64,000 bases of DNA from Amoebophrya sp. A120 (lineage: Eukaryota; Protista; Dinoflagellata). A program made the translations under genes and the position numbers. The stretch covers positions 1,864,281 through 1,928,280 of the forward strand of contig CAJINV010000013.1 in assembly GCA_905178155.1 (NCBI GenBank). The letters run 5' to 3'. The notes beneath the pieces were generated by a model. It was not told where the DNA came from, did not search any database, and saw only the letters and a list, made by a program, of their open reading frames with translations. Numbering within the stretch: the first letter of the stretch is position 1; every line of letters starts with the position of its first letter. Positions 9,001-47,860 of the stretch are shown piece after piece.

Positions 9001-10400
9001 GGCTCCACACTGTCGATGCGCTCCTTCACGCGCCTGGGCAGCAACGTGTCCGTGATCAACTTCGCCAGCGTCGGGAGTTCGTTCTCCATGCGGTCCTTCA
9101 GCAGGTTAGGCGGCAACATCTCCGTGCTGGACTTCTCCAACATGGGCTCGGCGCTGTCCGTGCGCTCGTTCGCGAGACTCGGCAGCGGCTTGTCCGCCAA
9201 GGGCAGCGTCCGGATTGACAGCACGCTGTATGTCGGCGATGCGGCCATCACCAGTGACAACTCCGGGAACCCGACCATGAAACTCTACCCGTACAAGACC
9301 AGCAGTGTGGCCAACAAGGCGGTATTTTATTTTCAGGATAGTTTGCTTTTTGAAATGATTTTGGTTCTTTTGGGTTAGATTTCATCCAGCAGCACTCTAA
9401 GATTAGAATTTCTCGTACTGTTCATACATTCAAGCCAAATGCGCACTTCTAATGCGAATCCGACAAATTGAAAACAGGGTATCACCATGGTCTACTCGGG
9501 TGGGGCAGTCGCCGGTACGCTCCACGGCACCTGGTCCGCAGACAACGCGGTGACTTCCTCCGATAAGAGGCGGAAGCGCGACATTGCGCCGCTGTACCAG
9601 GAGTTGCTGAAAGTGGCACCAAGGAACGAGAAGGCGCTGGCTCTGATGGAGCAAGGTAATTGCAAAACTGATTTTTTGCTGTTTTTGTCATGTAGAAAGC
9701 TCTTCAGTAGAATTTCAACGAAGTTCCGTTAGGCATGCAGAATTCGTTTTACTAGAAAAGGAAACGATCTCCAAAATCATCCCCAAAATGCTTATCCCAC
9801 AAATAAAACTCAGGTCGCGTTGCCGACGCTAAGGATGCCACGATCATCCAAGTGCTGCAAGAGCTCCGGCCTGTTAGCTACAAGTACAAGCGTGCTTCGG
9901 AGTCGAAGTACAGCCGGTACGGGTTCATCGCGCAGGAGATCGAAGAAGTGCTGCCGAACATGGTGGTGAAGTCCGAACAGGACGGCATGCTGCAACTGCG
10001 CCTGGACGACCTGATCGCGGTGCTCACACTCGGTATCCAGTCCCTGGACAGCCGCGTGTGGCAGCTCGACGAGAAGTTGACTACGATCGACATCAAGGTC
10101 GAGGAGAACTACGAGAAGTTGACCGATAGGATGAAGACCATCGAGACCATGATCCGGAAGGTGCTGATCGGCAAAAAGAACAAGGAGATAATGTTGGCAT
10201 CGAATGCTGTCAACGCCACCGCGGATAGTAATTCTGCAGCGATCGCAGCACACGAGCAAGTGATTGCACAGCAGCAGGTCAGCGTCGAAAGCACAATTGT
10301 GAACGGGGTTCAAGTGACAAAGACGTCAAACACGACGGTCATTCTGAACGACACGAATCTAACCGTGCTCAACGCGACTATGGTCGAGATCTTCGGATAA
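1..10400 (+). CDS. Giant 12-aa-repeat (predicted beta-helical fibre) protein with C-terminal peptidase S74 / intramolecular chaperone domain and coiled coil; 5'-partial, at least 2818 aa
   Basis: Exons joined by hand at GT-AG introns: <1-3741, 3903-4494, 4669-5544, 5690-5945, 6103-6251, 6391-6792, 6970-7132, 7315-7611, 7763-8081, 8231-8469, 8664-9321, 9478-9655, 9814-10400 (8457 nt, in frame, repeat register kept across junctions). About 200 units of GS-x-hydrophobic-S-V-x6. C-terminus has TSSDKRRKRDI...LRPVSYKYK...YGFIAQEIEEVLPNMV...LRLDDLIAVLTLGIQSL followed by heptads. Confidence 0.9.
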
Positions 10401-26228: not shown

Positions 26229-27148
26229 CCACTGTTTATTTCAAGGCGACATAGATACATGTGCTGGCATGTTAATAATTACACTACACATAGTCCTCCA
26301 TAGAGCATCAACTTTACGCACTCGCACGCATTGCAGTATCAGCTTTTTCTCTTTCTATGTATTACAATAGAAGCACGACTCGCACTCCACCGTGGCTGGA
26401 GGTGTCACTAAGTGAATTCAATACGTATTTCTTCAATGTGTCAATGGTGTCATAAGCAATAACTTTTGTTGTACAGTAAGTTTTCCACTACCTCTAGAAC
26501 GAGTATTTCGTGTCAGAAATATTAAAGTCACACTCCTGCTACAAACGAGAGGAGCTTCAACATGGTCTCCGAATTTCGAACAACGCGGCGAAAGGAATTT
26601 CCACGGATAGGAAGAACAGCACTCGTCGGTTCAGCTCGTACAAGCACCTGATGTTGACAGTAGTCAACTTGCTCCAACAGTCTCCCTTTCGGTCCAATCA
26701 TTCAGGAAGTCGTTTTTTCGTCCACATTCTGCTCTCAAACCCACAATTCGGATGAAAGAAATAGAAATACCCGTATCTTCGTATGACCTCGGTCGTTTTT
26801 CAATTTTTTCGTTCACAGACGAAGTTCACGACGTCGGTTGTTCCTGATAATTCGTACACTCCGAGCGTCCTCGTGCGCCGAACTTTACTGACGGCACAGC
26901 ATGTTGCAATTCCTTTACTTCCGAGTCCTCCATAAGAACTTCCCTTTTGCAAGCAGGGTGGCGGTCTCAGAGTGAGGTTTTAGAAGTTAGTTGAACTCTA
27001 GAACCCCGTAGAAGCAAGAAGACCCCTCGTACTGCCCGTACACAAACAGAGTAGAACTCTGTACGCCTAAACATCTCAGTAGTTGTTTAGGCTAGAAAAA
27101 ATCACTAGAAACAAAGTTTCGACAAGAACAAAGAGAACCCGGCGCATC

Positions 27149-30100
27149 ATGATGGCCACGCCAGTGGGGCGGTTTACTTTTTCCGCGGGGCGGCGGCTCG
27201 CGGGCCACGGGACCAAGTCTTCCTCCTCCAGCAGTTCGTCCGCCACTTCTACCCGGTTCACCGTTCAGTTCGGCTCGGCGTTCTCCACCGTGAACCTGAC
27301 TGGCGCGGCGAACCAGCGCCGGTTTTTCAGCAAGATGCAGGCGCCACCGATGGTTTACATCAGCGGCGAGGAGATGACGCACTACGCCTGCAACCTGATG
27401 ATGGACAAGTGGATCAAGCCCAACATCGACACCTCCAAGTGGGAGTACTACGATCTGTCCTGCAAAGCCCGCGACGACACGGAGGATAAAGTGCTCCACG
27501 ACGCCGTCGAGGCCGGCGCACGCATCGGGGCGATCTTCAAGGAGCCCACGATCACACCCACCGCCGACCAAGTGAAGGAACTCGGTACTCTACAGATTTT
27601 TGATGTAGGGTTGAAATAGGAAAGGAAAAAATTCAAATTGTGAAGAAGCTGCAAAAGTCTAAAGATCTTTCCGCTGTTTTGGATCTCGCCGACATGCGAC
27701 GGTTTCCTTGACAAAATGCTCCTCATTTTTGTTTTCGGGGGTGGTACAATGAAAAACCACGGACCACTATGAATGTACTTGCACGCATCTCATGCTCATC
27801 ACAGGTTTGAAAAAAGCCTGGGGTTCGCCGAATGGCGCCATGCGGCGCGGATGGAACGGCATCACGATTTCCCGCGACACCATCCACATCAAGGGAATGA
27901 AGCTCGGGTTCGAAAAACCCGTGCTCTTCGAACGCCACGCGGTCGGCGGCGAGTACGGAGCGGGCTGGGAAGCGGTCGGCAGTGGCAGCATCGAAACTCG
28001 GTATAGAGTTTTATTTTTGTGGTTGGTTCTTCTTCGTGTGCTTGTCATTGCGAAAGCGAATCGGTATCCACATGAATAATCGATCACTTTCCAGATGCAG
28101 GATAATTTTCAGGGAGAGCATCTCGCATCTGATGTTCTCTACTACTCAAGCTTATCTTTTCCACCTATGTCTTCACTTTCGTCTGCGTGTACGTTGCTTA
28201 CAAGTGCATGGTGAAATAAAATCGCAGGTACTACCCCTCCAACATGACCTCCCTCGCTGATGCCAAAATCGTGGACACCCGCAAGTTGACGGATGACGAC
28301 AACGTGGTGGTGACCTACCACAACCCCTTGGACAATGTGGAGGCGCTGGCCCACCACTTCTTCGGGCGCTGCCTGGAGGCCAAGGTCACCCCGTACGTGG
28401 TGACGAAGAAGACCGTATTCAAGTGGCAGGAGGGGTTCTGGCAGAAGATGAAGAAGGTGTTCGATGAACACTACCTGGAGAAGTACCAGCAGGCGGGGCT
28501 GCTGGACAAGTGCGGGAACCAGCTGCAGCACTTGATCTCCGATGCGGCGACCATGCAGATTATCCGCTGGACCGGCGGCGGCTTCGGGATGGCCGCGCAC
28601 AACTACGACGGAGACATGCTCACGGACGAAGTCGCCCAGGTGCACCGGTCCCCGGGCTTCATCACCTCCAACCTGATCGGCCAGAAGGCCGATGGCACCA
28701 TGATCAAAGAATATGAGGCCAGCCACGGCACGGTTGCGGACCTGTGGCACATGCACCTTCGGGGCGAAGAGACCAGCTTGAACCCGCTTGGGTTGGCGGA
28801 AGCCATGATCGGCGCAATCCAGCACGCGTCCAAGCTGGGCATGGTATTTTATTTACATTGAGACCAATTTTTTTGGGATTGGGGCGCGACACCTTTCGGT
28901 GTTGTATTATCCTTTTCGGGTTGGGTATATTCACATAATATATATAGACCCGGGAAAGGTAGAAATTGCCCGAAAGTACTGAAATCGTGAAGCACTTTAT
29001 CACTCCCCGCGTACCCTTACCCGAAACCACTCCAGCGATACCCTTACCCGAAACCACTCCAGGGTTTCCCGGTTTCCCGGTTTCCCGGCTTCCCGGCTTC
29101 CCGGTTCTTTTCGCTGTAGCTGACGCCGACACTGTAGCTGACGCCGGTCGTTTAGCTGAGCACGCCGGTTTCTTCTTTAGCGGAAGCCGGTTTTTTAGCT
29201 GAAGCCGATTTTTTAGCTGAAGCCGGCTTGTTAGCTAAACCCGGCTTGTTAGCTAGACCCGGCTTGTTAGCTCGAGCCGTTCCTTTAGCTAAAACCGGTT
29301 TTGTAGAGCTGCCGCAGTTGTTTCAGGCGCGCCAGCCAGTCTAGCTGCTGAAGCTGCAGCACGGGGGCCCCGCCGCGCCTCCTTTGGGCTCTGCGGCCGC
29401 TGGGCTTTTCCATGGAGCTGCTGGCCTCTCGGTTGCCCTAGCAGTTCTAGGACAGAAAAACAGCCGCCGCAATAAAGAGAAAGGCGGAACAGCTTCCCGA
29501 GTCTGTTCGCACATAGAGAAAGGCGGCGCGAACGCCCTCCCGCTCTAGGCACGCAAATTCTACGCCGAGGCCTCCCGGCAAGTCAGCGCCTTCGCTTCCA
29601 AGCTTGCTCGCTTCCCAGCCTGTCTGCCTCCTGGCTTTTTCGTTTTCGCTTCTCCGTTTTTAGCCTTTGGCCCTCCAAGCCCCCAAGCCCCCCACCTTCC
29701 CAGCAAGCCTGTCCACCTCCCAGCCTGTCGGCCTCCCAGCTTCGTTCCCGGCTCTTTTAGCTAAGACCGGTTTTCTAGCTAAAGCCCAAGCCGGCTTTGT
29801 AGCTGAAGCCGGTTTGTTAGCCGCGGCCGGTTTCTTTTTTAGCGGAAGCCGGTTTTTTAGCTGAAGCCGATTTTTTAGCTAAAGCCGGTTTTTTACCCAA
29901 AGCCGGCTTGTTAGCTAAACCCGGCTCGTTAGCTCCACCCGCCTTGTTAACTAAAGCCGGTCCTTTAACTACCTACAGCCGGTTTTGTAGCTACCCCGGG
30001 CTTTTCCTGCCTGCTCCGCTTACTTATCGAGCTGCCACAGCTGTTTCAGGCGCGCCAGCCAATCTGCCTGCTGAAGCTGCGAAGCTGCAGCAACGGGGCC

Positions 30101-32214
30101 CCGCCGCGCCTCCTTTGGGCTCTGCGGCCGCCGGACTTTTCCATGGAGCTGCTGGCCTCTCGGTTGCCTTAGCAGTTCTATGACAGAAAAACAGCCGCCG
30201 CAACAAAGAGAAACGCGGAACAGCTTCCGGAATCTGTTCGCACATAGAGAGGGAGGCGGCGCGAACGCCCTCCAGCTCTAGGCAAAAGCGACGCCGAGGC
30301 CTCTCAGCAAGTCAGCGCCTTCGCTTCCAGGCTTGCTCGCTTTCGTTTCCCCGCCTTCCCAGGTTTTCAGCCTTCCCGGCTTCTCCAGTTTGCTCAACCT
30401 TTCGAACCTCATTCGCCTTTTGAGCTTCTCAGCCCCCTCAGCCGCCCCAGTCTTTCTTACAGGCTTCCCTAGCCCTCCCAGTTCTCGCAGTCTGTTCAGT
30501 TTTTCCCGCCTTTTTCGTCTTTCCACTCTTTCCCGTCTCTATCTTCCTTGTCCCGAAGGTCTGGCCTCCCCGCCTCGTTGTGTTCCGCCGTTTGCCTCGT
30601 CGCTTCTGCGTGGTTTTCAAACTGTTCGCAGATAGAGAAACAGGCCCCGCAACAGACACAAGAAAACACGGGAGAAAATGGCCGCCGGAATCTGTTCGCA
30701 CATAGAGAAGGAGGCGGCGCGAACGCCCTCCCGATCTTTCTACGCAAAAGCTCCGGCCAAGCTTCCGAGAAAGTCCCGCCGCGGAAAATATGAGGCGCGC
30801 CATGATCTTCAAACGCGCATAGTTCTCAAAATAAACGCACAAGCAAAGATCCACAAAACGGCCCACGCCTGCGGAAAAATAAGATCGGCAGCCAGCGACT
30901 TGCCAAGTTAAATGCCGCTCCATAGCCAGAATTATCCGCAAGAGCTCCGCAAATATATAATTTGGCCAAGAGCAGAGCGGCCGCGTCTCGAATCTCATCG
31001 AAACAACCAGGACCCCAGTGGCTACCTGAAACTGACTAGCTGACACACCCGTACCCTTCCCCCCCGTCCTTTCCTTCTAGTTCTGCTTCCCCCCTCCCAG
31101 TGCTCTCGATTTCGCTTCGGGATAGAGATTCCTTCCCCCTGGCTAGTATTTTTAGGTTCAGAACATGCGTTTTGCGCGCTTTCTCTGATCAGGCCGTCCT
31201 ACGCCCCACCGCCACATCTTCTTCCCTACGATTCTACGTCCTGTTTCCGCCCCTGTCCGACACCAGCGTCGATAGGGTTTTGAGGGTCTTAGGGTTTAGG
31301 ATATTTGATTTACATTGCGGGCAGTTTTTTCTTTCATTTCGATGCAGTGCGACATTCTCACACACTCTCTGCAGCCTGGAACTGTAAGTGTACTCAAGAA
31401 AAATGTAGGAGTTATTTGTTTAAGCGGTTACGATTGCAGTGAGTTTCTCGCTGACCTTCTTGGCAACTCATCTAGTGCCGAAGAAGCTTGTGCCAAATTG
31501 TTCTTCCGAGCAGAAAAAGCTATCGATACAACCGAGTTGCTGCACGACCACAACGTGCGAAGTAGAAGTTCTAGAATTCATTTCCGACAAACTTTTTTTT
31601 CAGGACAAGGGCGACTGCCCGGACGCCCAAAAATTAATCGACTGGTCCAACGGCCTGCGTGACAGCATGCACGCCTGCATGGTTGCCGGCGCGGGAACCC
31701 GCGACCTGTGTGGCCCGAGCGGGCTCACAACGGAACAATTCATTGACGCAGTGGCGGAGCACATGAAGACCGGTGTGGTGCCGGGCGTCGCGGCCGCTGA
31801 GGCACCCGCAGCCGACCCGACCAGGGTGGAAGTGGTATCAATTTTATACAGAGCTTCTTTTTTTTTCTGAATTATTGTACATGTAGATGGATTGTAAAAA
31901 GAAGATGTGGGAGGTCCTCGTCGTGTACATGTACTTTTCGCTCGTTCGTGTGTTGCATTTTCGCGTGTGTCCATGTTTTTGATTCGGAATGAATTTGTGA
32001 TGCGAAATCGACAGTAAGAACAGCGTGTAAATGTAAATGTGTTAAAAACCTCCAAAAACTACAGCGCGACAGCAACGTGGATATGGACGTGGTAAAGAAG
32101 ATGTTCGACGAGTATGATGCCAATGCCGACGGAACCATCGACCTCGGCGAATTCGCCCGTATGCTGGTCAAACTCGGCGTCGCCCCCAAGAAAGCCGCAT
32201 CCAAGAGCATGTAA
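27149..32214 (+). CDS. IDH: Mitochondrial type II (homodimeric) isocitrate dehydrogenase, predicted NAD-preferring, with C-terminal EF-hand (542 aa)
   Basis: Exons 27149-27584, 27805-28000, 28228-28843, 31604-31834, 32065-32214 (GT-AG). Motifs GEEMT, KEPTITP, WGSPNGAMR, NYDGD, EASHGTV, SLNP, TRDL, TTEQFIDAV. R/S-rich transit-peptide-like N-terminus; last exon has DANADGTIDLGE. Confidence 0.92.
28861..31301. mobile_element. Repeat-rich 2.44-kb insertion in IDH intron 3 with ~16-bp target-site duplication
   Basis: Flanked by TATTTTATTTACATTG (28845-28860) and TATTTGATTTACATTG (31302-31317). Internal tandem duplication; telomere-like AGGGTCTTAGGGTTTAGG at the right end; no recognisable protein domain. 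Confidence 0.7.
29164..30342. repeat. Degenerate tandem duplication (period ~660-730 bp) partly built from ~18-19-bp TTAGCTRAAGCCGG units
   Basis: GCCGGTTTCTT(C/T)TTTAGCGGAAGCCGGTTTTTTAGCTGAAGCCG starts at 29164 and 29826. Both copies continue to AAGTCAGCGCCTTCGCTTCC; a partial third copy lies at ~30685-30731. Confidence 0.85.
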
Positions 32215-34819: not shown

Positions 34820-35359
34820 CAAGGTCTTGTTACTGAGAAGTTTCAGTTTGCTACATGGCGTACATTCGACGGGAAGATGAGCAAAATTCAAATGCTACAC
34901 CTACCCTGCAGAAGCCGAACGCAGCAGGCATGGTAGGAGACTGCCACTGCTTATCTAACATTCATGGCGTCATCCATACCGTGATTAATGTTAAAGTTAA
35001 TCTGTGCACATGACTGTAGAAATCCGTGCGAGACCGCTCATTCAGAGCAAATAAAAAAGCCCGCTGCCCAATGAGTGAGTGAGGTGTGGGTGAGTGAATA
35101 AGTGAGCCGCGGCGTGCTCCGCAAAGCTGTGCGCGCGTTGTTTCCCTAGCGTGAAAAGGTGGGCCCGCGCAGTGGTCTCGCTTACTTACCACTTGTGCAC
35201 TGCGCTTAAGACTGGTGTACAACTTTGGAGCGAGTGAGTGAGCTTGTTCAGTTTTGCTTCTCTCTTTTCCCTTCTACGAGGAGGAATTACACAAAGGTCT
35301 CTGGTGCGTGTTCAGGCATGATTGCAGACATTGGATTCAGTCAGCAAGCATCTACGAAA

Positions 35360-38300
35360 ATGACGCCGGTAGTAAATGAAGCAGGACCACTCCTTGTTCT
35401 CGTCGCAGCGTTACTAGTACCGCGCGCCGCTCTTGCTGCTGGCGCACTGGATTCGCGGTTATGCTACGCTGCAAGTTGCGGTTTTATGCTTGCAGAATTG
35501 ATTTTCGCGCCAAATAAAACAAGTTCTCGAAGTGTTGGCTTCGTATTTGCTCGACCGAGTACAACCACTCCTCCGGACGTCGAGAGGCAAGGAACTGGGC
35601 GCCAAGAGGACACAACCAGAACCACGCTTCGAAGCGCAGCCGACCAAGTAGAAGGACCACCGGACCGTAAAGAGTTCCTCACCGTTATACCAGACGAGGA
35701 GGAGGACCTTGGTTTTATTTCCAATAGCGGGGAGGTGGACGAAAGAAGAAGAACTGGAATTGAGAATGACCGTGAGCACCTCCTCGTAGCGAGTCGGCTT
35801 ATCCCACAGAAAAAAGCAAGCAGGTCATATTTGTATAATTCAAAAATAGATACACAGAAAGTGGAAAACGAATAATGAAAATCTGCGTTGCGTATCCTGA
35901 GCAGCATGCTACGGGGCGACAGATTCTTCTGTGTGTTTGTTTTTGCATTCCAAATTAATATTGCCTGCCTGCTTTTTTCAGTGTGATTCGGCTGACGAAG
36001 GAAAAACAGTTCCGAGCGAGAACATCAGAGCTTGCTCGTGGTGATGAAAGCCTTGTCGAAGTTGAACAGAAAGGAGCCTTGTCGGAACACGATGGCCTTT
36101 GGAACACGACGGACGACCTTTGGAACACGACGGACCTGGCCGCGGCGCACGGGGAAGATGACGTTCTCAACCAGCAGAATTTTGAGTCTGCTTCTGACCA
36201 TTCCACAGGACCCGTTTCGCGACGCGTGTTGGGCGAGAGGAAGAGCAGGAAGAATGACACGGACGTTGAGCAAGTAAATGGATCGGAAGGAACACAAAAC
36301 TATCGCTCGTCACCTAGTGAGCTGCTCGAAGTAGCAGCGCGAGCATCATCGTCGGCTAGAAGTGGTGCATCTACTCCAACGCGGTCGAGCGATGCGAATG
36401 AGAGCGACACGACAGGAAAAAATCAGCCGCAGCAGAAACAGTCGTCTCCGCAGCGGGGGCAGTTGGAACAAGAAGAGGAACAAGAAGAACACCCGCGAGC
36501 AGCGGATGCAGGTCACAGCAAACAGAAAATTGACACGTCACCGGAAGAACAAAAAACGGAAACGGGCGGTGAAAAAGCGTCCACTACGGTCGTCGGGGAG
36601 GCGGAGACATCAGTCGTGGCGGAGCTGCTGCAGCGTGTCAAGCAACTGGAGCGGCAGAGGGAAGAGGATAGAAATTCGTGGGGCGAGTCGGTCGACAAAA
36701 GGTTCCACATGGTGCGGGACGTCGGGTCGGCGGACGAGCAACTTTTGCAGCATATGCTGGCCGTGATACTGGCGATGAAGACGCACGAGTACATCCAGAC
36801 CGTCGCGTTTCTCAGCCTCGGTTTCGTTGCGGTACTGATTGCGATCTCCCTCCCCGCTGTGCGCGTTTTCTGCCCCCGGCGCCAAACCTCTAGCATGCTC
36901 CTTGCATCGTCATTCTCTGGCGGACCAGGAGAAGATCATCCGGAAGGGCGCCAGCTCCTCTTGCCGGCTAAAGCAGGACAAGATGGAGTAGCCGTCGTCG
37001 CGGCTAGCAGTGCAGATGAAACAGCATTTATTGGAGGAACTCCGCCGGAGACGATTTATCGTTTCTATCCGTTCGACTTCGTAGAGAAAGGGACGCTAAG
37101 CAGTGTTGTGCAATCCGCAGGCACGGACATCGGGCGAATCTTTGCGGTGTGCATCGTGGTAAACGAAGTACTGCTCCTTCTCTCCCAGTACCCTTTCCGG
37201 ATCTACGACACCTGGTGTATTGACAGTATAAGTAGCAGCGAAGCAATTTCGAGTCGGTCGTCCGAGGAACTTGAAGATATCAGGGACCCGTTTCCTTTTT
37301 TGACGCCGATGCACGAGAAGGTGGCGCGCACGCTCTGGCTCGTGCTTCCGCGCATTTGCTTGCTGATAACGGCCGCCGTTCCAGCTTCTACCTTCCAGCA
37401 AGTGCGGGCTTCTCTGTACAAGGCGTCTATTGCAAGGTCAGGGACCACACGGAGTAAAGACGCCCCGCCGGGGGCGCAGAAGCAGGCAGACGACCGCACT
37501 GGTGAGGGGCCAGCAGACGACGGCGCGGTGGGGAGGATGCAAAGACGAGCGCGTTCTGAGGATGCCGCTCGTCCGAACGATGAAACCAGAATTACAGATG
37601 ATGGCGATCATGTAAGGGGTAAAGAGTCGATCAACTTCATGCAAGTCCTTCACGCTCTGACTGCACCGACAGCGATAGTGACGCTTCTTCTGTTCGAGAC
37701 CATCCAGCTGAGCTTTGGCGAGCGCATCAATTTCCCTGCAGCAGTGATGGGCCTGGACGGCCGCGCGAGAGCTTCGGCGGCCGCGGCGAGGTGGGACGCT
37801 TTCGACGACATCACAAAGCTTCAACAATGTAATGAGTGGACTTCTGCGGCTCGCCTGCTGTTCTTCCCCCAAGTCTTTCGGTTCCGTGTGCTCTTTCTGG
37901 TAGCCGGCTGGGTGTGCTCGTTTGCCTTCATGGTTTTGCACCTATTACTGGAGTTCCAAGTCCCGCAGCGTTTCGGTTTCGTCAACGACGGGGAACAGAT
38001 TTTCTTCGACAGTCATGGGCAGTGGGTACGGGAAGCGCGTTCTCTCCTGCTTCCGAAACTGTCTTTTGTGTTGGAAATTGTAGCGTTTCTTCTGGTTCAG
38101 TTTCTCCCTTTTTTTCCGATTTTGGAGCGGATATTTGTTTCCCCCGGAGCACCACTTGGAACACGGGAACCACTTGGAGACACTGCATACCACGCTTGGA
38201 CGAAGAGTCCAGGACTTCCAGAATGGTTTGTGGGAGTGGAATATCCCAAGAAAACAAATGTTACAGTTTTAAACGGTTCGTGTTGTAATTTTAGCAACAT

Positions 38301-39243
38301 AAAGTTTCTCTATCTGATGACAGAAAAATTTGCAATGCAGTGCTGACGATTAGAAGGAAAAACAAGTATGAAATTAGGCTCCTGAGAAGTCGATCCGGCA
38401 TGCAGAGCTTGTCTGTCTTGCTTGGTCTGCAACACAATGTGTAGCTGTAGCAGTTGGTTCGTTGGGGTTGGATATGGAAGCTGGAACCCTGCGGGACTCT
38501 GTGGGACTACGTAGCCACGCATGACGGATGCCCTGCTATGGAGGGGAGGCGAGTGATCTTCCCGGCTACTGCTAGTTCTCTAAGAAAAAAACCCCATTTG
38601 TCAGCACGCGGCTTTACTTACCGGCACATGATGCAGCACAACTTCCTCTTTCTGTGATGCAAAACGCCTGCCACGAATCACTCGGTACTGCATGGAACTG
38701 CACGACTTGTGATCTTCAAAAAGAGTGTACGCAAATCTGCATGGCAGGCTTCGACTTTTCTTGAGACTAGCAGCAGTCCCAAACAAGAAAGCTACTCGCT
38801 TTATTACCTCTATACCTGCAGTCCCACACGGGCAGGTGTCGCAGAATTTGTGGCTGACCAGGCCGGCAGACGTTCAGCAGCATATCAAATGTAAAAGTGT
38901 CTGGGTCTGGAAGAATGCAACTTGTCATACTAAATCTGCAGCATGCAAAAATCTGTGTTGCGTGATTACCAAAAGTCGTCCAGTTTTGACCAAGTCGGGA
39001 GGGAGTTTCTCATGCAGGATAGGCATGAGAGAGATCGCACAGAATCTGTCATGCTAGGTCCTGCATTCCAGACCTCATGGGTCAACATGGAAAATATGCA
39101 TGACAAATCGTGCGCTCTTCCAGACCCAGACATTTTTGCATTTGATACAGCAGATCGACGCGCGATTTTGGACTAACGTGACGGAGTGGCGCTGCAACTT
39201 TTATTCTATCGACATTTTTGGCCTCTGCGTTCAGAGTAAGTAG
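35360..39243 (+). CDS. Multipass membrane protein with signal peptide, interrupted by four TAT...ATA element introns
   Basis: Exons 35360-35799, 35994-~38241, ~38480-38536, 38820-38882, 39153-39243. Removing element plus one TSD gives ASR-LTKEK, DGCP-AVPHG and DVQQ-QIDARFW...QSK*. Several TM helices. The junction at 38242 is ambiguous. Confidence 0.7.
35800..35988. mobile_element. TIR introner-like element (189 bp), TSD CGGCT
   Basis: TATCCCACAGAAAAAAGCAAGCAGG... pairs imperfectly with ...CCTGCCTGCTTTTTTCAGTGTGATT over ~60 nt. CGGCT at 35795-99 and 35989-93; excision fuses ORFs 35225 and 35983 in frame. Confidence 0.85.
38242..38474. mobile_element. TIR introner-like element (233 bp), TSD TGGAA
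   Basis: TATCC...GGATA ends with degenerate TIR; TGGAA at 38237-41 and 38475-79. Confidence 0.8.
38537..38814. mobile_element. TIR introner-like element (278 bp), TSD CCTGC, family B
   Basis: TATGGAGG...CCTCTATA; CCTGC at 38532-36 and 38815-19; precise excision is in frame; the 5' end resembles the element at 63829. Confidence 0.85.
38883..39147. mobile_element. MITE-like introner (265 bp), TSD CAGCA, family A copy 1
   Basis: ~35-bp TIR TATCAAATGTAAAAGTGTCTGGGTCTGGAAGA; CAGCA at 38878-82 and 39148-52; closely similar to the reverse complement of 44026-44290. Confidence 0.93.
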
Positions 39244-40710
39244 ATGACGTTGTCGTCGTCGTCGTCGTCCTCGTCCTCGTCCTCGTCGCGGGAGGATTAA
39301 CTTCGACCACCAAAACTACTGCGCATTTATTTGTCGCATCGATGGATCATATGAATTTTAACAAAAAGTAAAAGAACAAGAAGTCTACAGAACTTGAACT
39401 GCAACTGACACATACTACACTACTTTCTTCGTTGGACGGAAATAGTCGTGATAAGGAAGGAAACAGTTGCTGCACTGTTAGTTTCTATCTCAGTTTCTTT
39501 ATTTCTATTAGTATACTCGAACCTCGTACTCGTTTACGATCCGAAGGCAAAGTTAAGAAAAGGAAAAGAAGGGAGGTGGGGAAAGAAGTGTTGCACTATG
39601 GAATCTTTGATCAAGTCAAAGCGAGTAGCAACCATGCACAGAACATAAAGCAAGCATAATTTCCGATCATAAATGGCTACGTGAAAATGCAATGATCAAA
39701 AATCCATTACCATTTGGGCTTTAACGTGTTTATCTATCCTCCTGTGACAAAACGGCTATAGACAAGTTTTAATGAAATTAAAAATCTGGCCGTGAATCGT
39801 AGTAAAGTTAAGATGTAAAGATTTACCCCTTTGTGTTTGTTACACTTTGTCTCACAGTTCCTGTTAGAGCTTTGAAGCACTCTCTTGTGACATGACTTGA
39901 TAAGGAAAACGCTGTGGGCAAAGGCGCAGAGCCTGCTCGTGTCGCGCCCTAGATGCGAGCGATTAGCTGCTTAATCTGTTGAGGAAGTTGCAACTTCACC
40001 TTGTTGACGTGGTCTCCTGGGTATTGTGAACCGTCCTGATGTCGAGGCACTCGGTGCACTGTCCTGATGTCGCAGCAGTCGGAAAAACAGCAACAAAGCA
40101 GAGAAGTAATTCAGTCCCCCTTGTTTGGTGAACAAGGGAGACTTGTTGCCCTTGTCGAGTCTGCTAGCCTCGTTCTCGGCAGCTGGATCTGGCTACTGTT
40201 CGCTTGTGCTGAAACACCATGATGAGTAGTTGTCATTTTATATATACTTTTTCATTTTCAACAAGTAGTGGTTCTGTTCTCTGTGCTGTATCGAGGTCTT
40301 TTTTCCAGAACACGAACACCGCGATGGAAGATCAAGCAAATGCAAGAAAACAAGAGCGAGGATGTCGGTTAGTATCTAATATAGTAGATGAACAGCTGCA
40401 AGTCCAAACGCCGACACTAGGAAGTCAATTAATTTTAGACTCACCCTCACTCCAAGTGGGGAGGAGGACGAGTACAAGCAGTGCTGGATATTAACAATGG
40501 CGCTTGATTGATGATGAAGCTACGTCTTGCTCTTGGTGGTCGAGCAAGAGCACTTAGTAAGTAGTCAAAGCAATGCATCCATTGCAGTTTTATTTCTCCC
40601 GGTGTTCTTGTACCCTGCGCCGGCCGGCCGCCGGTGGTGGTCGAGCTCCTGCTCCTGCTGTTACTAGTCAATTGAGATTGACCAGCTATGGCTCCGGTTT
40701 GTTTGTAAAA

Positions 40711-41775
40711 ATGTCCAGGGCTGGCCTACTTTTCGCGGTGTTTGGCGCGGCAGGGCGGTTGTTTTTCTTTTTCCTCAGTCCGGGCGTTGCAAATGGATTA
40801 GCCCGCCCCGCGGACGAGGTGGATCTTCATTCGAATGCTCCCGCGAAGAGGAAGACCCACCGGAGGGAGATGATCCTGCTGGACGATTATAGCGGTGGGC
40901 CGCAGGGGCAAGAATTCACTGACCACGTCGACGAGGATACAAGTACGGAACCCGGACAGCTGCGTCATTTTTCAGTCGCAAACCAGGAGGGCTTGTTCAT
41001 CCAAAAAACGCAGTGGGCGCTCCCATCCCCCCGGAGTTTTTTTCGTCGTATGTGGAACAGGTTCCGGCGCCAGAAGCCGAGAAGTAGAAATAAGGGCGGT
41101 GCAGGGCTGTTGAAGGAGGAGGTCCAGAACGATCATCCAGCAGGCGACGCGTGTACAGCAGATCTAGATGGTGCAAAATCAAGTGTCGCACCGCGAAGAA
41201 AGTCACGAAGGCCAGAACCGCTGCGAACAGAACCAGTAGAACTACTTGATTATGAAATACCAGCGCGACGACCGATGCTGCTCGTAAACGCGACGCGCGC
41301 TCTCGATTTTTTTGATAGGGAACTCCCAGATGTCGTGGGAAATTCTGGATGGACGCCGAACCACAAGTCATTCACATTGGCCAAGCTGTTGAATCGTATT
41401 TACTTTGGAACACCCCGCAATCTCCTCGCTCTCGATCAGAATACAAATAATTACACATACCAGATGAATCTACGCACGATTAGCGGCCACGCGGATCTCC
41501 GGCCACGGGTGTATGGTCTCAATAAGGACAATTTTTTAGTGCGTGAGCTTCTAAATCAAAAGCAAAGCACCAAGTACAAAAACGAGTATGACAGCGTCGA
41601 GTCTGAGTCTGAACATCAAGAAGAAGACGGCGGGTGTGATAGCAAGCTTGTTGAAGACGAACCTGACTACCATAAGCCCCTGGTCGTTTTGGTCCACGAC
41701 CATGTAAAGTATGCATTTCAGCGACTTTCCACAGACCCGGAAGAATACATCATGAGAAGACTTTTAGAAGTGTAG
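40711..41775 (+). CDS. Secreted hypothetical protein
   Basis: ATG 40711 followed by hydrophobic signal-like MSRAGLLFAVFGAAGRLFFFFLSPGVANG; 354-aa open frame; no domain recognised. Confidence 0.6.
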   Translation: MSRAGLLFAVFGAAGRLFFFFLSPGVANGLARPADEVDLHSNAPAKRKTHRREMILLDDYSGGPQGQEFTDHVDEDTSTEPGQLRHFSVANQEGLFIQKTQWALPSPRSFFRRMWNRFRRQKPRSRNKGGAGLLKEEVQNDHPAGDACTADLDGAKSSVAPRRKSRRPEPLRTEPVELLDYEIPARRPMLLVNATRALDFFDRELPDVVGNSGWTPNHKSFTLAKLLNRIYFGTPRNLLALDQNTNNYTYQMNLRTISGHADLRPRVYGLNKDNFLVRELLNQKQSTKYKNEYDSVESESEHQEEDGGCDSKLVEDEPDYHKPLVVLVHDHVKYAFQRLSTDPEEYIMRRLLEV

Positions 41776-42937
41776 GTCGACTCGAAAACTCAATAGCGAG
41801 GAGGATTCATTGCAATGTCAATTTGTCCTCGGTACGGGAAGCGTTACGATGAAAAGATGAACGCAACAGTTGTGCATCAAAAGAATGCCAGGGAATACCT
41901 AGCAAGCTCTGTAACCATTTCTTATTTCATTTGTAGTGCGTCTCATAATCAGAGGCGAAATTGTCCACCGTTTTCACCGCAGCGAGGGGTCTTCATTGAA
42001 ATAGCACTGGAGAAAAGAGGTGACGGTGAGTAAACGCGTTCCCACCTGTACTAGAATTATGGTAAATCCAAACAGAAACGCCGATATTAAGTCAATTAGT
42101 CGCTTGGAGGCGTGCGAAGAGGACCAGAAAAAGAAAAAGACAACGGCTCCGTGATTTCCTCTTCCTCAGTGATTTCAGTGAATCGTCAGCCCAAGCAATA
42201 GACCCGCGATGCACAAGAAAAAGAACCTCGGTCCTGGCGGTTCTCTGTCGTGTGGAAAATGAAATGGAACAGCTGTTTTCGGTCCATTTTGCTGAACTTT
42301 ACGTGTCCTTTAAACAAGATTTGCATTTCAGGCCGCAATTTTTGTCAATGTCACTCCTGTGGTTATATTTCTTTGGTCGGTGTTTGAAAGGCAAAGGAGA
42401 AGTTCAAGTTCGGTTTTATGGAGGTCTTGTCATCGGAGTCCGATGAAATTCACACTTCTGTTGATGTTGCAATTTTTCGGTGTTCAGATATGTTTCGGTA
42501 ATTAATTCTGAAAGAACCCGTGATTTAATTATAGGTGGTTTGTTAGAAGCGACTGTGGCAAAGTCAAAGATTAAGATATTCATTCTCATTTTGTTTTTGA
42601 AAGTTATGTTGGAATAACGCTAACGTAACTAAATAGATACCTGCATCGCAACATCTTTAGCTACTACAAATGACATTTCTCGCATTGCATGACAGTGCTG
42701 TCCAGGTCTCACGGTTTAAACAACCCTAGTACTTTACTGCGAGCTACATACCGACGTGGTCCCGTCATCTTTGTATTTTTAGGTGATTTGATCTCCTTCT
42801 TCGTTCGCGAAGATCGTGCGAAAAGGATTCCGCCTGGAACGGTGTGCAATTGCGCTGCCTTTGCCCCCCCCCTGGGACGAGTCCTCGTGGTGGCCTCAGC
42901 TTGTAAAAAACTCATCATCATCATCTGGTAAATAATC

Positions 42938-45900
42938 ATGGCGGCCGTGCAAGTGAAAACCAAGCAGCCAGCGGGGGATCCTACCTACCCGCTACTGGTT
43001 TCCGAGTCGACGCGCCAGATTCTGGAGCTGACTCTGAACGTCTACAAGGGCGTGTCGCAGGGGAAGGGCGGCATCTGGCTGACCGACTACTTCTATCGCC
43101 GCATGCTGTCTTCGGAACCCAGTTTGCGCAACGTGTTCAATCAGGCAAACCAGTCGGGGTTTAAGCAGCCGATGAAGCTGTACGACTCCTTCCTGATTGC
43201 CGCGGAATGCGCCATTGCGAAGAAGCCGTACCCGGCGGACAAGATCGATACCATCTCTCAGCGGCACGTTGGCCTCATGGTTACGCCGGCCATGTACGCG
43301 ATTGTGAAAACCCACCTGGTGCAGACGATCATCGAAACGCTGGAGGCCGGGGGGGATCAGCGAGTGTACGCTGCCTGGGCCGAACTGTACGACGTGTTCG
43401 CCGCACACCTGATGACTTTGGAGAAAAAGCTGTACGAAGACAACAAAAATGCGGGCTGGAAGGTGGACACAGGCGACAACATGGCAAATAACGGCGAGAA
43501 CAATAAAGCCAAGGATCAGAAGCGCCTATTTCAACTGGTGAAGAAGGAGAAGCTGTCGCCGCTGGTGACCCAGTACTTCTTCTCTCCTATCAAAGTGAAA
43601 GAAGCCCCCACCCCATATCGGAAACGGAAGATGCGCGAATTTGTGATGCTGTATTTGAGTACACAAATCAACTTGTATTGCTAGAAGGCCAGGAGACGAA
43701 GCTGCGGCCTAAATTGCAGGTAATCTGTCATGCTGTTTCCCACTTCCAGTTGCCTCCTGTCATCCTGGACCTGCAAGGCTTTCCCACGCTAGACAGCACT
43801 ACAGTCCGCATCTTTTGCCTTCTAGCATCACAAGCTGATTTGTGGCCACAAATCTGCATCACAGATTTCCGCTTTGATATGGGGAGGGGGCATTTTTCAT
43901 TGTAATATCTCCGCAAGACGGAAAGCCGCTGCTGGCGGTGAAACCGGGCAAGTACCTGACGCTCTGGATGCAGGTGGGTTCCTACACGCAGCCGCGCCAC
44001 TACACCATTGTTCCGACCAAGGAAGTATCAAATGTAAAAATGTCTGGGTCTGGAAGAATGCGCGATTTGTCATGCAGCTTTTCCATGTTGACCCTTGAAG
44101 CCTGGAATGCAGGAACTAGCATGACAGATTCTGTGCGATCTCTCTCATGCCTGTCCTGCGTGAGAAACTCCCACACGACTTGGTCAAAACTGGACGACTT
44201 TTGGTAATCATGCAACACAGGTCTTTGCATGCTGCAGATTTAGCATGACAAGTTGCATTCTTCCAGACCCAGACGTTTTTACATTTGATAGGAAGAGGTA
44301 GAGGACTCCTGCTACTCCATCTGCGTGAAGCGCGACGGCGCGGTCTCGACGGGCTTGGAGCTGGTCGGCCTCCGCGAGTGCCTGCCGCTCAGCCCGCCGC
44401 AGGGGGCCTTTAACCTGCAGAAGTACCTCCGCGCGTGCCAGCGAGCCATTAACTACGACACGTCCACCGGATCTGGCGGCCCGTACTTGCTGCTGCTCAG
44501 CGCTGGCACGGGGATCACGGCAATGCTCTCGCTCCTCGCGCGCACCGTATCATGAGGAAAACTGAGGATCCCCTTTCCACATATTGAAATTGGAACACAT
44601 ACACGGGGATGAGAATTTGTGTATGCTGATTTTTTGTTGTGTAGTACGCAAATTATGCCTTATTTCTCTTGCATACTTGGGAAGGGGAAGCAAGAGCGAA
44701 AGGTAGCACTTGGCAGGCCATCTGTGACGCGTTTTAGCCTACAGCAGCAACGTCTATGATGCTGAAGCGCTAGACTTCTAGAAACCCGAACAGCTGCTCT
44801 AGCATACGCCTCCACTTTGTTCCTGCAAGACAACAAGGCTGATTCCTGGGGCCACGAATCAATCTGCATCCTCACCAATTTTCCTTTTGAGTATCCGAGG
44901 AAGGAGGGGGGGTTTTTCCTCACGATACGACGAATTTCCGCAGTTTGCATCGGGAAAGAAGTTAAAAATCGCCTGGTGTCACGGTTGCCGCAACGGTCAG
45001 GAGCAGTTGTTTCGGGACAAGGTCGCGGACATCATCCAAAAAAAAACGGAGGAAAACGAGACGCTCGAGTATCAATGTGGAAATATACTAGTGTCCCGAG
45101 GACCCCAGGACGGTGGAGAGCATTAGCCTGTAATGCACTTACTTATGCATAGAATTAAAATTAAAAAGTGGGTTCCGTGACGAGGAGGACCGAGGACGTG
45201 AGATAAGTGCCCTTTGTCGTAAAAGAAAGGAAAAATGCGACGCATTTTGTTCTTTCACGATCTGGGGATGCTGCTTCTTCAGCAGCATGACAGACGTCGC
45301 TTGATCACACAAGTAGCTTTCGCTATTCTACAACAGAGGGTCTTGGTTTTCGAGGAACCAAAGAAATGCATGCATGTGGCGCTCGGAAACCGAGCCTCGG
45401 CCCACGAGGGAGCCGGTGCGCGCTCTGGCAAAAAAGAGCGCAAATGTTTTCTTCGTGATTTTTGCGGAGCTTTGTATCTATGGTATATATTGGCTTGATT
45501 CGTAGATGATAAGTATTTCCCCTCCGTATTTCTGGGGCACCACCAGGGGCGCGAATTTCCATCTTTCTCGTGGATATCGAGATCCAGCAATATGTATGGT
45601 ATTCGCGGCCCCGGGACGACGACCCCACCACCGACGGGAAGCTTGTGACCGTGAAAACCGGGCACATGGACCTGCAGTCGTGTGCGGAGCTGTCCAGGTT
45701 TCTTGGCGGGCGGACCACGGCGGCCATCGGCGGCACGTACGCTTACATGTGCGGCCCCGGGGGCTGGCTGTCCAAGCAAAGGCAGGATTTGACCGCCATG
45801 TCGAAGCGGATTTGCTTGCCCGAGAATGTCGTTTACGAGTCCTACGGAGAAGAGCTCACCGGCGAGGCGGACCCGATGATGCAAGCCGCGCTGTTATCCC

Positions 45901-46470
45901 CAGTAAAGAAAAAGCAGTTGTGTAGTTGCACCCAGCACGTTGTAGTCGTCAAGATGAGAGCAGTGACGTTTAGTATGCGTACATACAAGTCATAATCAAG
46001 ATGAAGCTTTGGCTACTGTGCATGAAATCATTTTTGCGATGTCCGCAGCGTAAAAATCAACGGAATTCTTGTGATTTTCTAGCTCCGAGCAGTCACGATG
46101 TGTAAGTACCACCCAGAAGATCACTTTTTGAAGATGCTGTACCTGTACTGAGTATGACAAAGTCCGCCCCCATCGAGGACCACGACGAGAAAACTGTTGC
46201 CATACTAGCGAGCAGTCGCATGAGACACTTGCTTCTGGTGCGCTATAATACTGAATACTTGCAGTTACATGCAAGATGTGCTGGTAGCTGAGAAAACTCT
46301 ATTATTGTGCTGGATGCTACTACTACTCACTACGTTTTTGAAAGCAGGCATAGCTGCAGAGCAACCAACCCGGAAACGACGGACGGGAATTTCCGCTGCA
46401 GATTCAGACTCAGGCAGGGCCGCTGGATTTCTGTTTGGCGGGTATCCAGAAGTTCCTGGCTTGCAAGTGA
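42938..46470 (+). CDS. hmp: Flavohaemoglobin (NO dioxygenase; globin + FAD + NAD domains), ~527 aa
   Basis: Exons 42938-43587, 43913-44024, 44292-44546, 44929-45069, 45582-45893, 46357-46470 (last exon less certain). Globin FYRRM...VFNQANQ...RHVGL...AWAELY; FAD domain PGKYLTLW, PRHYTI, YSICVKR; NAD domain SAGTGITAMLS, WCHGCRNG, YMCGP, YESYG. Confidence 0.9.
43588..43907. mobile_element. TIR introner-like element (320 bp), TSD TCTCC
   Basis: TATCAAAGTGAAAGAAGCCCCCACCCCATATC pairs with GATATGGGGAGGGGGCATTTTTCATTGTAATA; TCTCC at 43583-87 and 43908-12; excision gives FFSP-QDGKP. Confidence 0.9.
44026..44290. mobile_element. MITE-like introner (265 bp), TSD GGAAG, family A copy 2 (opposite orientation)
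   Basis: Near-perfect ~36-bp TIR; GGAAG at 44021-25 and 44291-95; creates GT(44025)...AG(44291). Confidence 0.93.
44548..44927. mobile_element. TIR introner-like element (380 bp), degenerate TSD
   Basis: TATCATGAGGAAAA...TTTTCCTCACGATA; flanks CACCG and CGACG; removal joins LLART to DEFPQ in frame. Confidence 0.8.
45070..45576. mobile_element. TIR introner-like element (507 bp), TSD TCGAG
   Basis: TATC...GATA ends with decayed TIR; TCGAG at 45065-69 and 45577-81; excision gives ETLE-IQQYVW. Confidence 0.85.
45895..46352. mobile_element. Decayed TIR introner-like element (458 bp), TSD GCTGT/GCTGC
   Basis: TAT...ATA ends; subterminal GTAGTTGCACCCAGCAC pairs with GTGCTGGATGCTACTAC; excision extends the frame to a stop at 46470. 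Confidence 0.65.
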
Positions 46471-47860
46471 ACAAGTCCGCACAACGAGGAAGAGCTCAGG
46501 ACTCTCCCGTTCCTGCTGTTCAACGCGGCACAGCTCTGTACCCCCATCATCTCTGTAAAGGTAACCACAAATTGAAAGGTGACTACTAGTGGGACATGGA
46601 TGCCATTTGTCTTCCAGTTCTTAGCCGCACGAGACACGGTGATTTAGTATCCTCCACTCCAGGTTTTTTGTTATTTTTATTTATCCAAAATCTTAATCTT
46701 GTGTCTTCGAGCATGTATTGATTCCCTCTTGATTTCATCTCAACACGCCCTAAGTCTAGGGTAGTTCTAGTTTGTAGAGTATTTTACTACCACCTTCATG
46801 CTCTCCTGCATCGGACAAGCCCGAAGAAAAAAAAAATGTTTAAGTGAGGTCTGGTAAATCCATCGAAAAGCAAATGTGCCAACCCTCGCGCGACGACCAC
46901 ATGAATCCATTTGAGGCTTTTTCTAGAAACATCAGCGAATAGGAATAACAGGAATATAGCTTCATTGGATGTCGCACCAAATCCATTCATCTTGCATTTC
47001 CGAATCGATCTTCGATCTTCCGGCAGCTGTGCAGACACATCTGAATCTGTGTTGTCGCATTGAAGAACCGAAAAAGAATCTGTTGACTTTTTTGCAGAGA
47101 AGAAAATGTTTTTTCCGGAGAAAGAAAAAAGACAAAGACGATTTCTCGTCATGCGAAATTGCAAGACAACATACATGAACATTTTCTGAAACTACCGAAG
47201 ACAGTCGTTTGGGAAAAAATCGACAAACGGGCCAAGTTCTATTTGATCTGCAGTATTACAGTCATTTCTTGCATAGTCGGTCTAACACTTAATATCGTGT
47301 GGATCACCATGATCTGAGAGAACCTTACCTTCGCAAATGGTGATCCGGCTATTGTTTTCACAGGTCTTCCTCAAGAAATTGCATGAGCTGCTTCGTATAA
47401 TGTTGCAAAAAATTCTCGTACAACTACAAGCAGAGATGATGAGAATGAAACTCAGACGAGGTCTCATAGGATAGTTCCATGTTTATTTGATCGTGATCCC
47501 CCTGATCAGAAATCTTAGAGACCCTCCAAGCGAGTGGGACAAATCAAGATCTTCGCGCTGCAAAAGTTGAAGTCGTGATGTGAAGATGGTGCGTTCAATC
47601 TGTTGAAGAATCTTTGAAGATGATACGCAAATAAACAGAACCATTATCATGAGACCGATCACAGTGAAGGATTGATGTCGAACTGCTTATGTTTTATGCG
47701 GATTCATTTTCCATTTCCGTGCTGTGTCATCACAATTGTAAAATGATGTTGATTAATGGCCGCGACATAATGTTTCCCCGAATGCCTTCTATTTAAGTAA
47801 AAAGTAATATGGCTTTTCTTCGTGTAGTTAATTTGAACGACAGAACGCGAGCATAAAAAG

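Follow-up and report, generated by a model that had tools for sequence, protein, structure and literature searches.

Oppositely oriented copies of one Amoebophrya sp. A120 introner are removed from RNA with one target duplicate, probably at cuts set by their own paired ends

The stretch analysed here, referred to as the window, comprises 64,000 nucleotides of contig CAJINV010000013.1 from the marine parasite Amoebophrya sp. A120. Two of its genes each carry one copy of the same 265-nt introner, designated A in a gene for a multi-pass membrane protein and B in a flavohaemoglobin-like gene, and further elements (C to I) are inserted in the same two genes (Table 1). Since both host genes lie on the plus strand, A and B are opposite relative to transcription.

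Table 1. Host genes, elements, target duplicates and splice-site pair (positions are those of the window)
Feature	Position	Strand	Length	Duplicate	Remark
Multi-pass membrane-protein gene (public model P0001)	35318..39243	+			holds elements D, E, F and A
Flavohaemoglobin-like gene	42938..46470	+			525 aa once elements C, B, G, H and I are removed
Copy A (introner)	38883..39147	+	265 nt	CAGCA	TAT..ATA ends; in membrane-protein gene
Copy B (introner)	44026..44290	-	265 nt	GGAAG	reverse orientation; in flavohaemoglobin-like gene
Target duplicate of A	left 38878..38882, right 39148-39152	+		CAGCA
Target duplicate of B	left 44021..44025, right 44291-44295	+		GGAAG
GT..AG pair	44025..44291	+	267 nt		in frame; GT at 44025, AG at 44290-44291; would give TKEEEV
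Element C	43588..43907	+	320 nt	TCTCC	removed as 325 nt
Element G	44548..44927	+	380 nt	CACCG/CGACG (imperfect)	removed as 385 nt
Element H	45070..45576	+	507 nt	TCGAG	removed as 512 nt
Element I	45895..46352	+	458 nt	GCTGT/GCTGC (imperfect)	removed as 463 nt
Element E	38242..38474	+	233 nt	TGGAA	removed as 238 nt, run X3 only
Element F	38537..38814	+	278 nt	CCTGC	removed as 283 nt, runs X2 and X3
Element D	35800..35988	+	189 nt	CGGCT	right end ATT; element + 5 nt removed in public gene model

The membrane-protein gene belongs to an Amoebophrya paralogue family. The long plus-strand open reading frame (ORF) upstream of A corresponded to P0001 (100% identity over 514 aa), which is assigned to Amoebophrya sp. 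A120 at its source, as were all 10 proteins consulted; A is located in the 3' part of the gene. A profile derived from 11 paralogue C-termini matched only plus-strand frames at this gene, and its match to the last block increased from 13 to 22 bits after elements E and F were taken out. A minus-strand transcript across A, raised because F reads GT..AG on that strand, was rejected since the profile matched plus frames only. Exon 1 of the flavohaemoglobin-like gene displayed a Globin domain (Pfam, E 5.8e-9), its nearest structures being flavohemoglobins (4g1b, E 4e-17), and the five RNA joints of the gene yielded a single open frame. A reductase half was presumed in the same protein from FNR-type motifs. 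No Pfam family was assigned to exons 3-5 or to P0001, the sole Protein Data Bank match of exon 3 was weak (E 0.81), no flavohaemoglobin database model showing the annotated junction appeared at E <= 0.001, and Rfam gave no match within 35000-47000.

Copies A and B were gap-free reverse complements differing at 20 of 265 positions (14 transitions and 6 transversions; 92% alike) and flanked by duplicates, as had been claimed in a reading of the DNA made from its letters alone (the sequence-only reading). The terminal inverted arms measured 37 nt (89%) and 36 nt (97%) in the two copies, both left ends displayed TAT-N7-AAAA, and both copies folded on the plus strand as end-to-end hairpins (z -9.6 and -9.4) that none of 200 shuffles equalled in stability. 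If retained, A or B would bring in-frame stops into the transcript. A shorter element with a 6-bp duplicate (AGGAAG) at B would not suit A or the remaining elements, all of which require 5 bp, and was discarded. As to candidate branch points, the last 100 nt of A and B contain a single YTRAY motif, situated inside the terminal inverted repeat (TIR), and F and I carry none.

The summed depth of sequencing run X8 reached 320,000 in the bin of A and 248,000 in that of B against a background of ~44, with many foreign flanks; these values, though not a copy count, place both copies in an abundant family. Corresponding depths were 66,000 at C and 2,800 at E, while H remained at background. Joints listed from the X8-dominated mapping (15 of 135) all derived from other family copies. 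Several X8 contigs at 39147 and 44026 linked family end to family end over spacers of 23-38 nt, which suggests that copies at other genomic sites are often tightly spaced. Excised circles were not accepted as the source of these end-to-end joints (39147>44026), the letters between the ends pointing to neighbouring copies elsewhere.

Thirteen sequencing runs were listed and six were compared with the window (X1-X4, X8 and X11, the last contributing 2 reads). Runs X1-X4 represent two samples from one study and were guessed by the tool to be likely RNA; depth in X1-X3 was zero across the bins of 40292-41387, which fits RNA. The RNA contigs are blind to strand and lose rare variants, and the junction evidence presumably all derives from complementary DNA (cDNA). 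At B, the joint 44019>44290, skipping 270 nt, was encountered in all four runs (contig depths 178, 160, 181 and 7); at A, the joint 38877>39148 likewise skipped 270 nt and was found in two of the four, X2 and X3 (depths 6.8 and 6.9). The removed length therefore equals, at both sites, the element plus one 5-nt duplicate, and the products read DVQQQID at A and TKEEV at B. Because the duplicates are perfect, the position of the cut is hidden: the A joint has six equivalent readings and the B joint seven, the latter including GA..AG (offset -4) and GT..AA, and GT-AG occurs in none of them.

These joints bear out one expectation of the sequence-only reading, namely that the element, young and repeated, is lost from transcripts whichever way it is inserted. 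Its statement that precise excision at A offers no GT-AG pair held over all six readings. It had also anticipated that the flavohaemoglobin copy is spliced at the GT-AG pair in Table 1, with one Glu codon added. That pair does exist in frame, but the main joint skipped 270 nt and not 267 in every run; no 267-nt joint was present among the seven joints listed in 38100-46300 for X1-X4, where only the main product at B is known because contigs drop rare variants. A weak upstream GT at 38872, suggested as a donor at A, was not used, since A yields DVQQQID. Neither of the outcomes named beforehand as refuting, retention of one copy or canonical sites at both, appeared among the X1-X4 joints.

We consider it likely that both copies are removed as the element plus one 5-nt duplicate and that their own paired ends, instead of a GT-AG pair, set the cuts. 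The two genes had been proposed as a natural test of whether removal ignores orientation and is guided by the hairpin. The first part stood: orientation-independent removal is supported, and the joints show that strand-specific interior signals are dispensable. The second part did not: turning the element round leaves the first ~36 nt of each end almost unchanged, so that opposite orientations cannot prove guidance by the hairpin.

The other elements followed the same rule of length. All seven joints listed in 38100-46300 corresponded to the element plus 5 nt, and the count became eight out of eight with element I, whose removal was read from a loose end behind 45893 in X1-X4 that was placed at 46357. 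Single contigs spanned three joints in succession at depths of 160-181. The eight RNA-supported elements represent seven unrelated sequence types, interiors being alignable for A and B alone. Eight of the nine elements in the two genes end in TAT..ATA; D, which ends in ATT, displayed strong end pairing nonetheless and is supported by the gene model, with no RNA joint listed. TAT..ATA stretches flanked by 5-bp repeats numbered 21 in the window against 9.2 expected, and seven of the window's stretches combined a perfect 5-bp repeat with at least 8 of 14 end matches, against a mean of 1.07 in 30 shuffles (maximum 4). Pairing between the outer 30 nt exceeded shuffles in seven of the eight RNA-supported elements (six at 0/300, H at 11/300).

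All nine RNA- or model-supported elements clustered in these two neighbouring genes, within 11 kb (35800-46352) of the 64-kb window, the RNA comparison covering 38100-46300. The sequence-only reading had passed over both the published A120 intron class and the seven older elements with the same ends in these two genes. Contigs of X1 that kept G, H or I (44612-44911, 45040-45546 and 45864-46382) had depths of 4.5, 8.0 and 12.7, compared with 141-178 for the skipped form, an order that follows the weakening end pairing of the three elements (-27.4, -15.6 and -8.5 kcal/mol). This trend is a hint only, as it comprises three points whose order is confounded with gene position, and contig depth is a poor measure.

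In the membrane-protein gene, P0001 reads 34 residues into element E (38242-38343), which X3 skips, and lacks the conserved C-terminal block. A frame change relative to the paralogues was also noticed at 38120-38195: homology to them follows the upstream frame until ~38140 and is found again, from ~38190 onwards, in the +1 frame. One X1 contig (37870-38230) and an X8 contig were gap-free here. As read, the mRNA stops at 38522-38524, with F and A just behind the stop and the downstream frame intact for 122 codons. A recent frameshift, a missed short removal and ribosomal frameshifting are the candidate explanations of this change.

The two imperfect duplicates allowed the cut to be narrowed. 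Counted from the first T, element G permits an intron start at -2, -1 or 0, and element I one at -5 to -1; if a fixed register is assumed, the overlap is -2/-1. Under the same assumption the GA..AG reading of B (-4) is ruled out because it is incompatible with G. At -1, every intron starts with N-T and ends 4 nt beyond ATA. In Table S4 of PMC7789003, T is second in all nine predominant non-canonical site types of A120, and the commonest repeat is described in that paper as lying four bases upstream of the 5' end; the published site counts fit the 1-nt offset (N-U start).

The following course of events is proposed. A DDE transposase or integrase encoded elsewhere would insert the element either way and duplicate 5 bp, a step that the ends, the duplicates and the many different flanks document. 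In the pre-mRNA, the terminal inverted repeats are predicted to pair, and their symmetry would present an identical 5' end (TAT...) and 3' end (...ATA) whichever way the element lies. Cutting at a fixed distance from these ends, most likely 1 nt ahead of TAT and 4 nt beyond ATA, would account for the observed length; the intron would start with N-U and end in any dinucleotide, and the exon would be restored to its state before insertion. Since B reads GT..AA at the -1 register, the AG one base past the element would be passed over. The catalyst would most likely be a U2-type spliceosome with altered splice-site selection; U2, U4, U5 and U6 were reported as present and U1 as not detected in the published A120 genome (PMC7789003). 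We suggest tentatively, with slightly more doubt than belief, that these steps amount to a second splicing code of A120 acting as a ruler, in which whatever sequence lies between paired TAT..ATA ends is cut out with 1 nt ahead of them and 4 nt behind, the U at position +2 is all that is kept of the GU rule, and AG is ignored even where an in-frame GT-AG pair is available.

Several points weigh against paired ends as the determinant of the cuts. The A joint stems from one sample only and all four runs from one study; the RNA status of these runs is the tool's guess and their contigs are strandless. For the B joint, GA..AG at offset -4, a site of dinoflagellate type, is another reading, and a minor 267-nt form may exist there. 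The register depends on two imperfect duplicates and on the assumption of a single register, and aligner placement may lie behind the published site counts. Removal does not depend on a perfect stem at the ends, since element I was removed although its outer 30 nt paired no better than shuffles (41% of these as good), and since in whole-element folds of C and E the outermost TAT/ATA bases had a low probability of pairing.

The behaviour of element I is also an argument for another explanation, in which a protein or a small nuclear RNA (snRNA) would bind the ends as sequence motifs (TAT-N7-AAA and the mirror of it), the hairpin being a by-product of transposon symmetry. Removal would then be equally precise and independent of orientation. 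The opposite copies do not tell motif from structure, and TAT/ATA ends are common to unrelated elements with widely differing stems. Against this, the excess of end pairing over shuffles in seven of eight elements includes G and H, which lie at or near single-copy depth in X8, and D is excised in the public model with strong pairing but without the ATA right end. Recognition of the motif alone is thus unlikely, though it deserves to be kept in view.

Slippage of reverse transcriptase over hairpins flanked by direct repeats would generate joints ('falsitrons') of exactly the element plus one repeat. Hairpins accompanied by short direct repeats are the substrate described for this artefact, and cDNA can be dominated by the resulting products (PMC8240250). 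Reverse-transcription PCR, proposed with the sequence-only reading as a check, is liable to the same artefact where direct repeats flank a hairpin. Slippage is nevertheless improbable because neither gene would survive unremoved elements, their retention killing both frames and four of the five flavohaemoglobin skips not being multiples of three, and because G, with a 2-nt shared overlap, and I, without a significant stem, were skipped too. The succession of three joints in single deep contigs speaks against it as well.

A relaxed spliceosome that chooses the best nearby dinucleotides at each site, GA-AG at B for instance, with selection keeping frame-preserving insertions, appears very improbable. 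GA..AG is among the seven readings of B, F reads GT..AG on the minus strand, and GA-AG accounts for 1.5% of A120 introns (PMC7789003, Table S4). However, no plus-strand reading of the type GT/GC/GA..AG is available for elements A, C, E, G, H and I, and the paralogue profile found no match on the minus strand; moreover, such a mechanism would allow other in-frame lengths, yet all eight removals measured exactly the element plus 5 nt and a better GT-AG pair at B was passed over. Splicing of B mainly at that pair is scarcely credible: the sites exist, they keep the frame and contig assembly could have lost a minor isoform, but the only joint listed, in four of four runs, was that of 270 nt. An element absent or excised from DNA in part of the population, with the joined contigs as empty alleles, is next to untenable even though RNA status was guessed and 15 of 135 joints were listed, since X8 contigs that include the element run without a break through the four borders of A and B, at single-copy depth (38-42, the region being even at ~42-57 outside repeats), and X1-X3 left silent bins uncovered while every element was skipped at once.

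Paired ends that set the cuts relate A and B most closely to the introner elements already described from A120 (Farhat 2021, PMC7789003). These are repeated, RNA-supported non-GT-AG introns of ~240 nt on average with terminal inverted repeats, direct repeats of 3-5 nt, a TAT-N7-AAA start and no transposase inside, for which a role of the hairpin was proposed; their definition calls for an inverted repeat of 8-20 nt joining the intron ends and for TAT followed by seven variable bases and at least three A (PMC7789003). Every feature examined was found in A and B: the A120 genome, removal without GT-AG from what is taken to be RNA, the inverted repeat, the direct repeat, TAT-N7-AAA and repetition. 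The available text of PMC7789003 treats the splice position relative to the hairpin as variable or unknown and uses 'orientation' for genes only, whereas here one family was removed both ways, always as the element plus 5 nt, with GT-AG passed over and the cut narrowed, for a fixed register, to -2/-1. No statement on introner orientation or a fixed register in A120 was found in the literature searched, although figures 3 and S19-S23 of PMC7789003 may already show part of this. The phenomenon is already published; what is added here is a concrete ruler hypothesis.

The introners of Aureococcus and Polarella are TIR transposons with target duplications (5 nt in Polarella class 12) that give rise to introns whichever way they are inserted (bioRxiv 10.1101/2020.10.14.339549). 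Their GT/GC/GA and AG sites are either carried along or recruited, and the usable targets are therefore restricted. In contrast, eight different targets were all excised here; sites of this kind are lacking in every reading of A, and at B they are limited to the GA..AG reading, the GT-AG pair being left unused. Nonconventional introns of euglenids share non-GT-AG ends, paired termini and duplicate-like repeats, and a fixed spacer between paired motif and cut was shown genetically (PMC12501133, PMC11282704). By analogy, they are the best working model for the ruler. They belong to an unrelated lineage, are reported to be excised as circles and display the signature N3-CDG / CH'G-N5-6 rather than TAT/ATA; judged by eye, the 5' ends of A and B contain no CDG at positions 4-6 in the -2 or -1 register.

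With respect to mobility, A and B resemble miniature inverted-repeat transposable elements in being short, non-coding, high-copy TIR elements with a target duplication (PMC10045372). The TA..TA termini of the IS3EU/GingerRoot group (PMC10045372, PMC12130899) are shared by eight of the nine elements and offer a lead for the mobiliser; membership was not assigned because the duplicate here is 5 bp, the removed length being the element plus 5 nt in all eight RNA-supported elements, and 6 bp is usual in that group. According to PMC12130899, A120 family 38 contains an integrase-like ORF between its TIRs, and the superfamily was listed as unknown in all 20 rows available of the 58 for A120. The 14-nt end motif had no match in the 12 supplement files of that paper (out of 14) that were covered.

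Elsewhere in the window, positions 1-9250 consist of a long array of degenerate 36/72-nt repeats (GC content 0.52-0.66), which probably encodes a large repeat protein. A further TAT..ATA candidate is located there at 8595-9340, with a perfect GTTTG repeat and 9 of 14 end matches. At 27083-32211, ORF pieces presumably represent an isocitrate dehydrogenase and, behind it, an EF-hand-like segment; a stretch rich in repeats (29146-30775) separates parts of them.

Since 2021, it has been asked how Amoebophrya, in which U1 snRNA was not detected, excises non-GT-AG introns numbering in the tens of thousands. The present locus narrows this question, since orientation was ignored, the removed length was constant and a ready-made GT-AG pair was passed over. 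If the ruler is true, it would exactly reverse a 5-bp insertion made either way, explain the invasion of exons at almost any target and leave a whole transposon superfamily hidden from the proteome. It would also correct gene models and parallel, in an unrelated lineage, the fixed-spacer code of Euglena.

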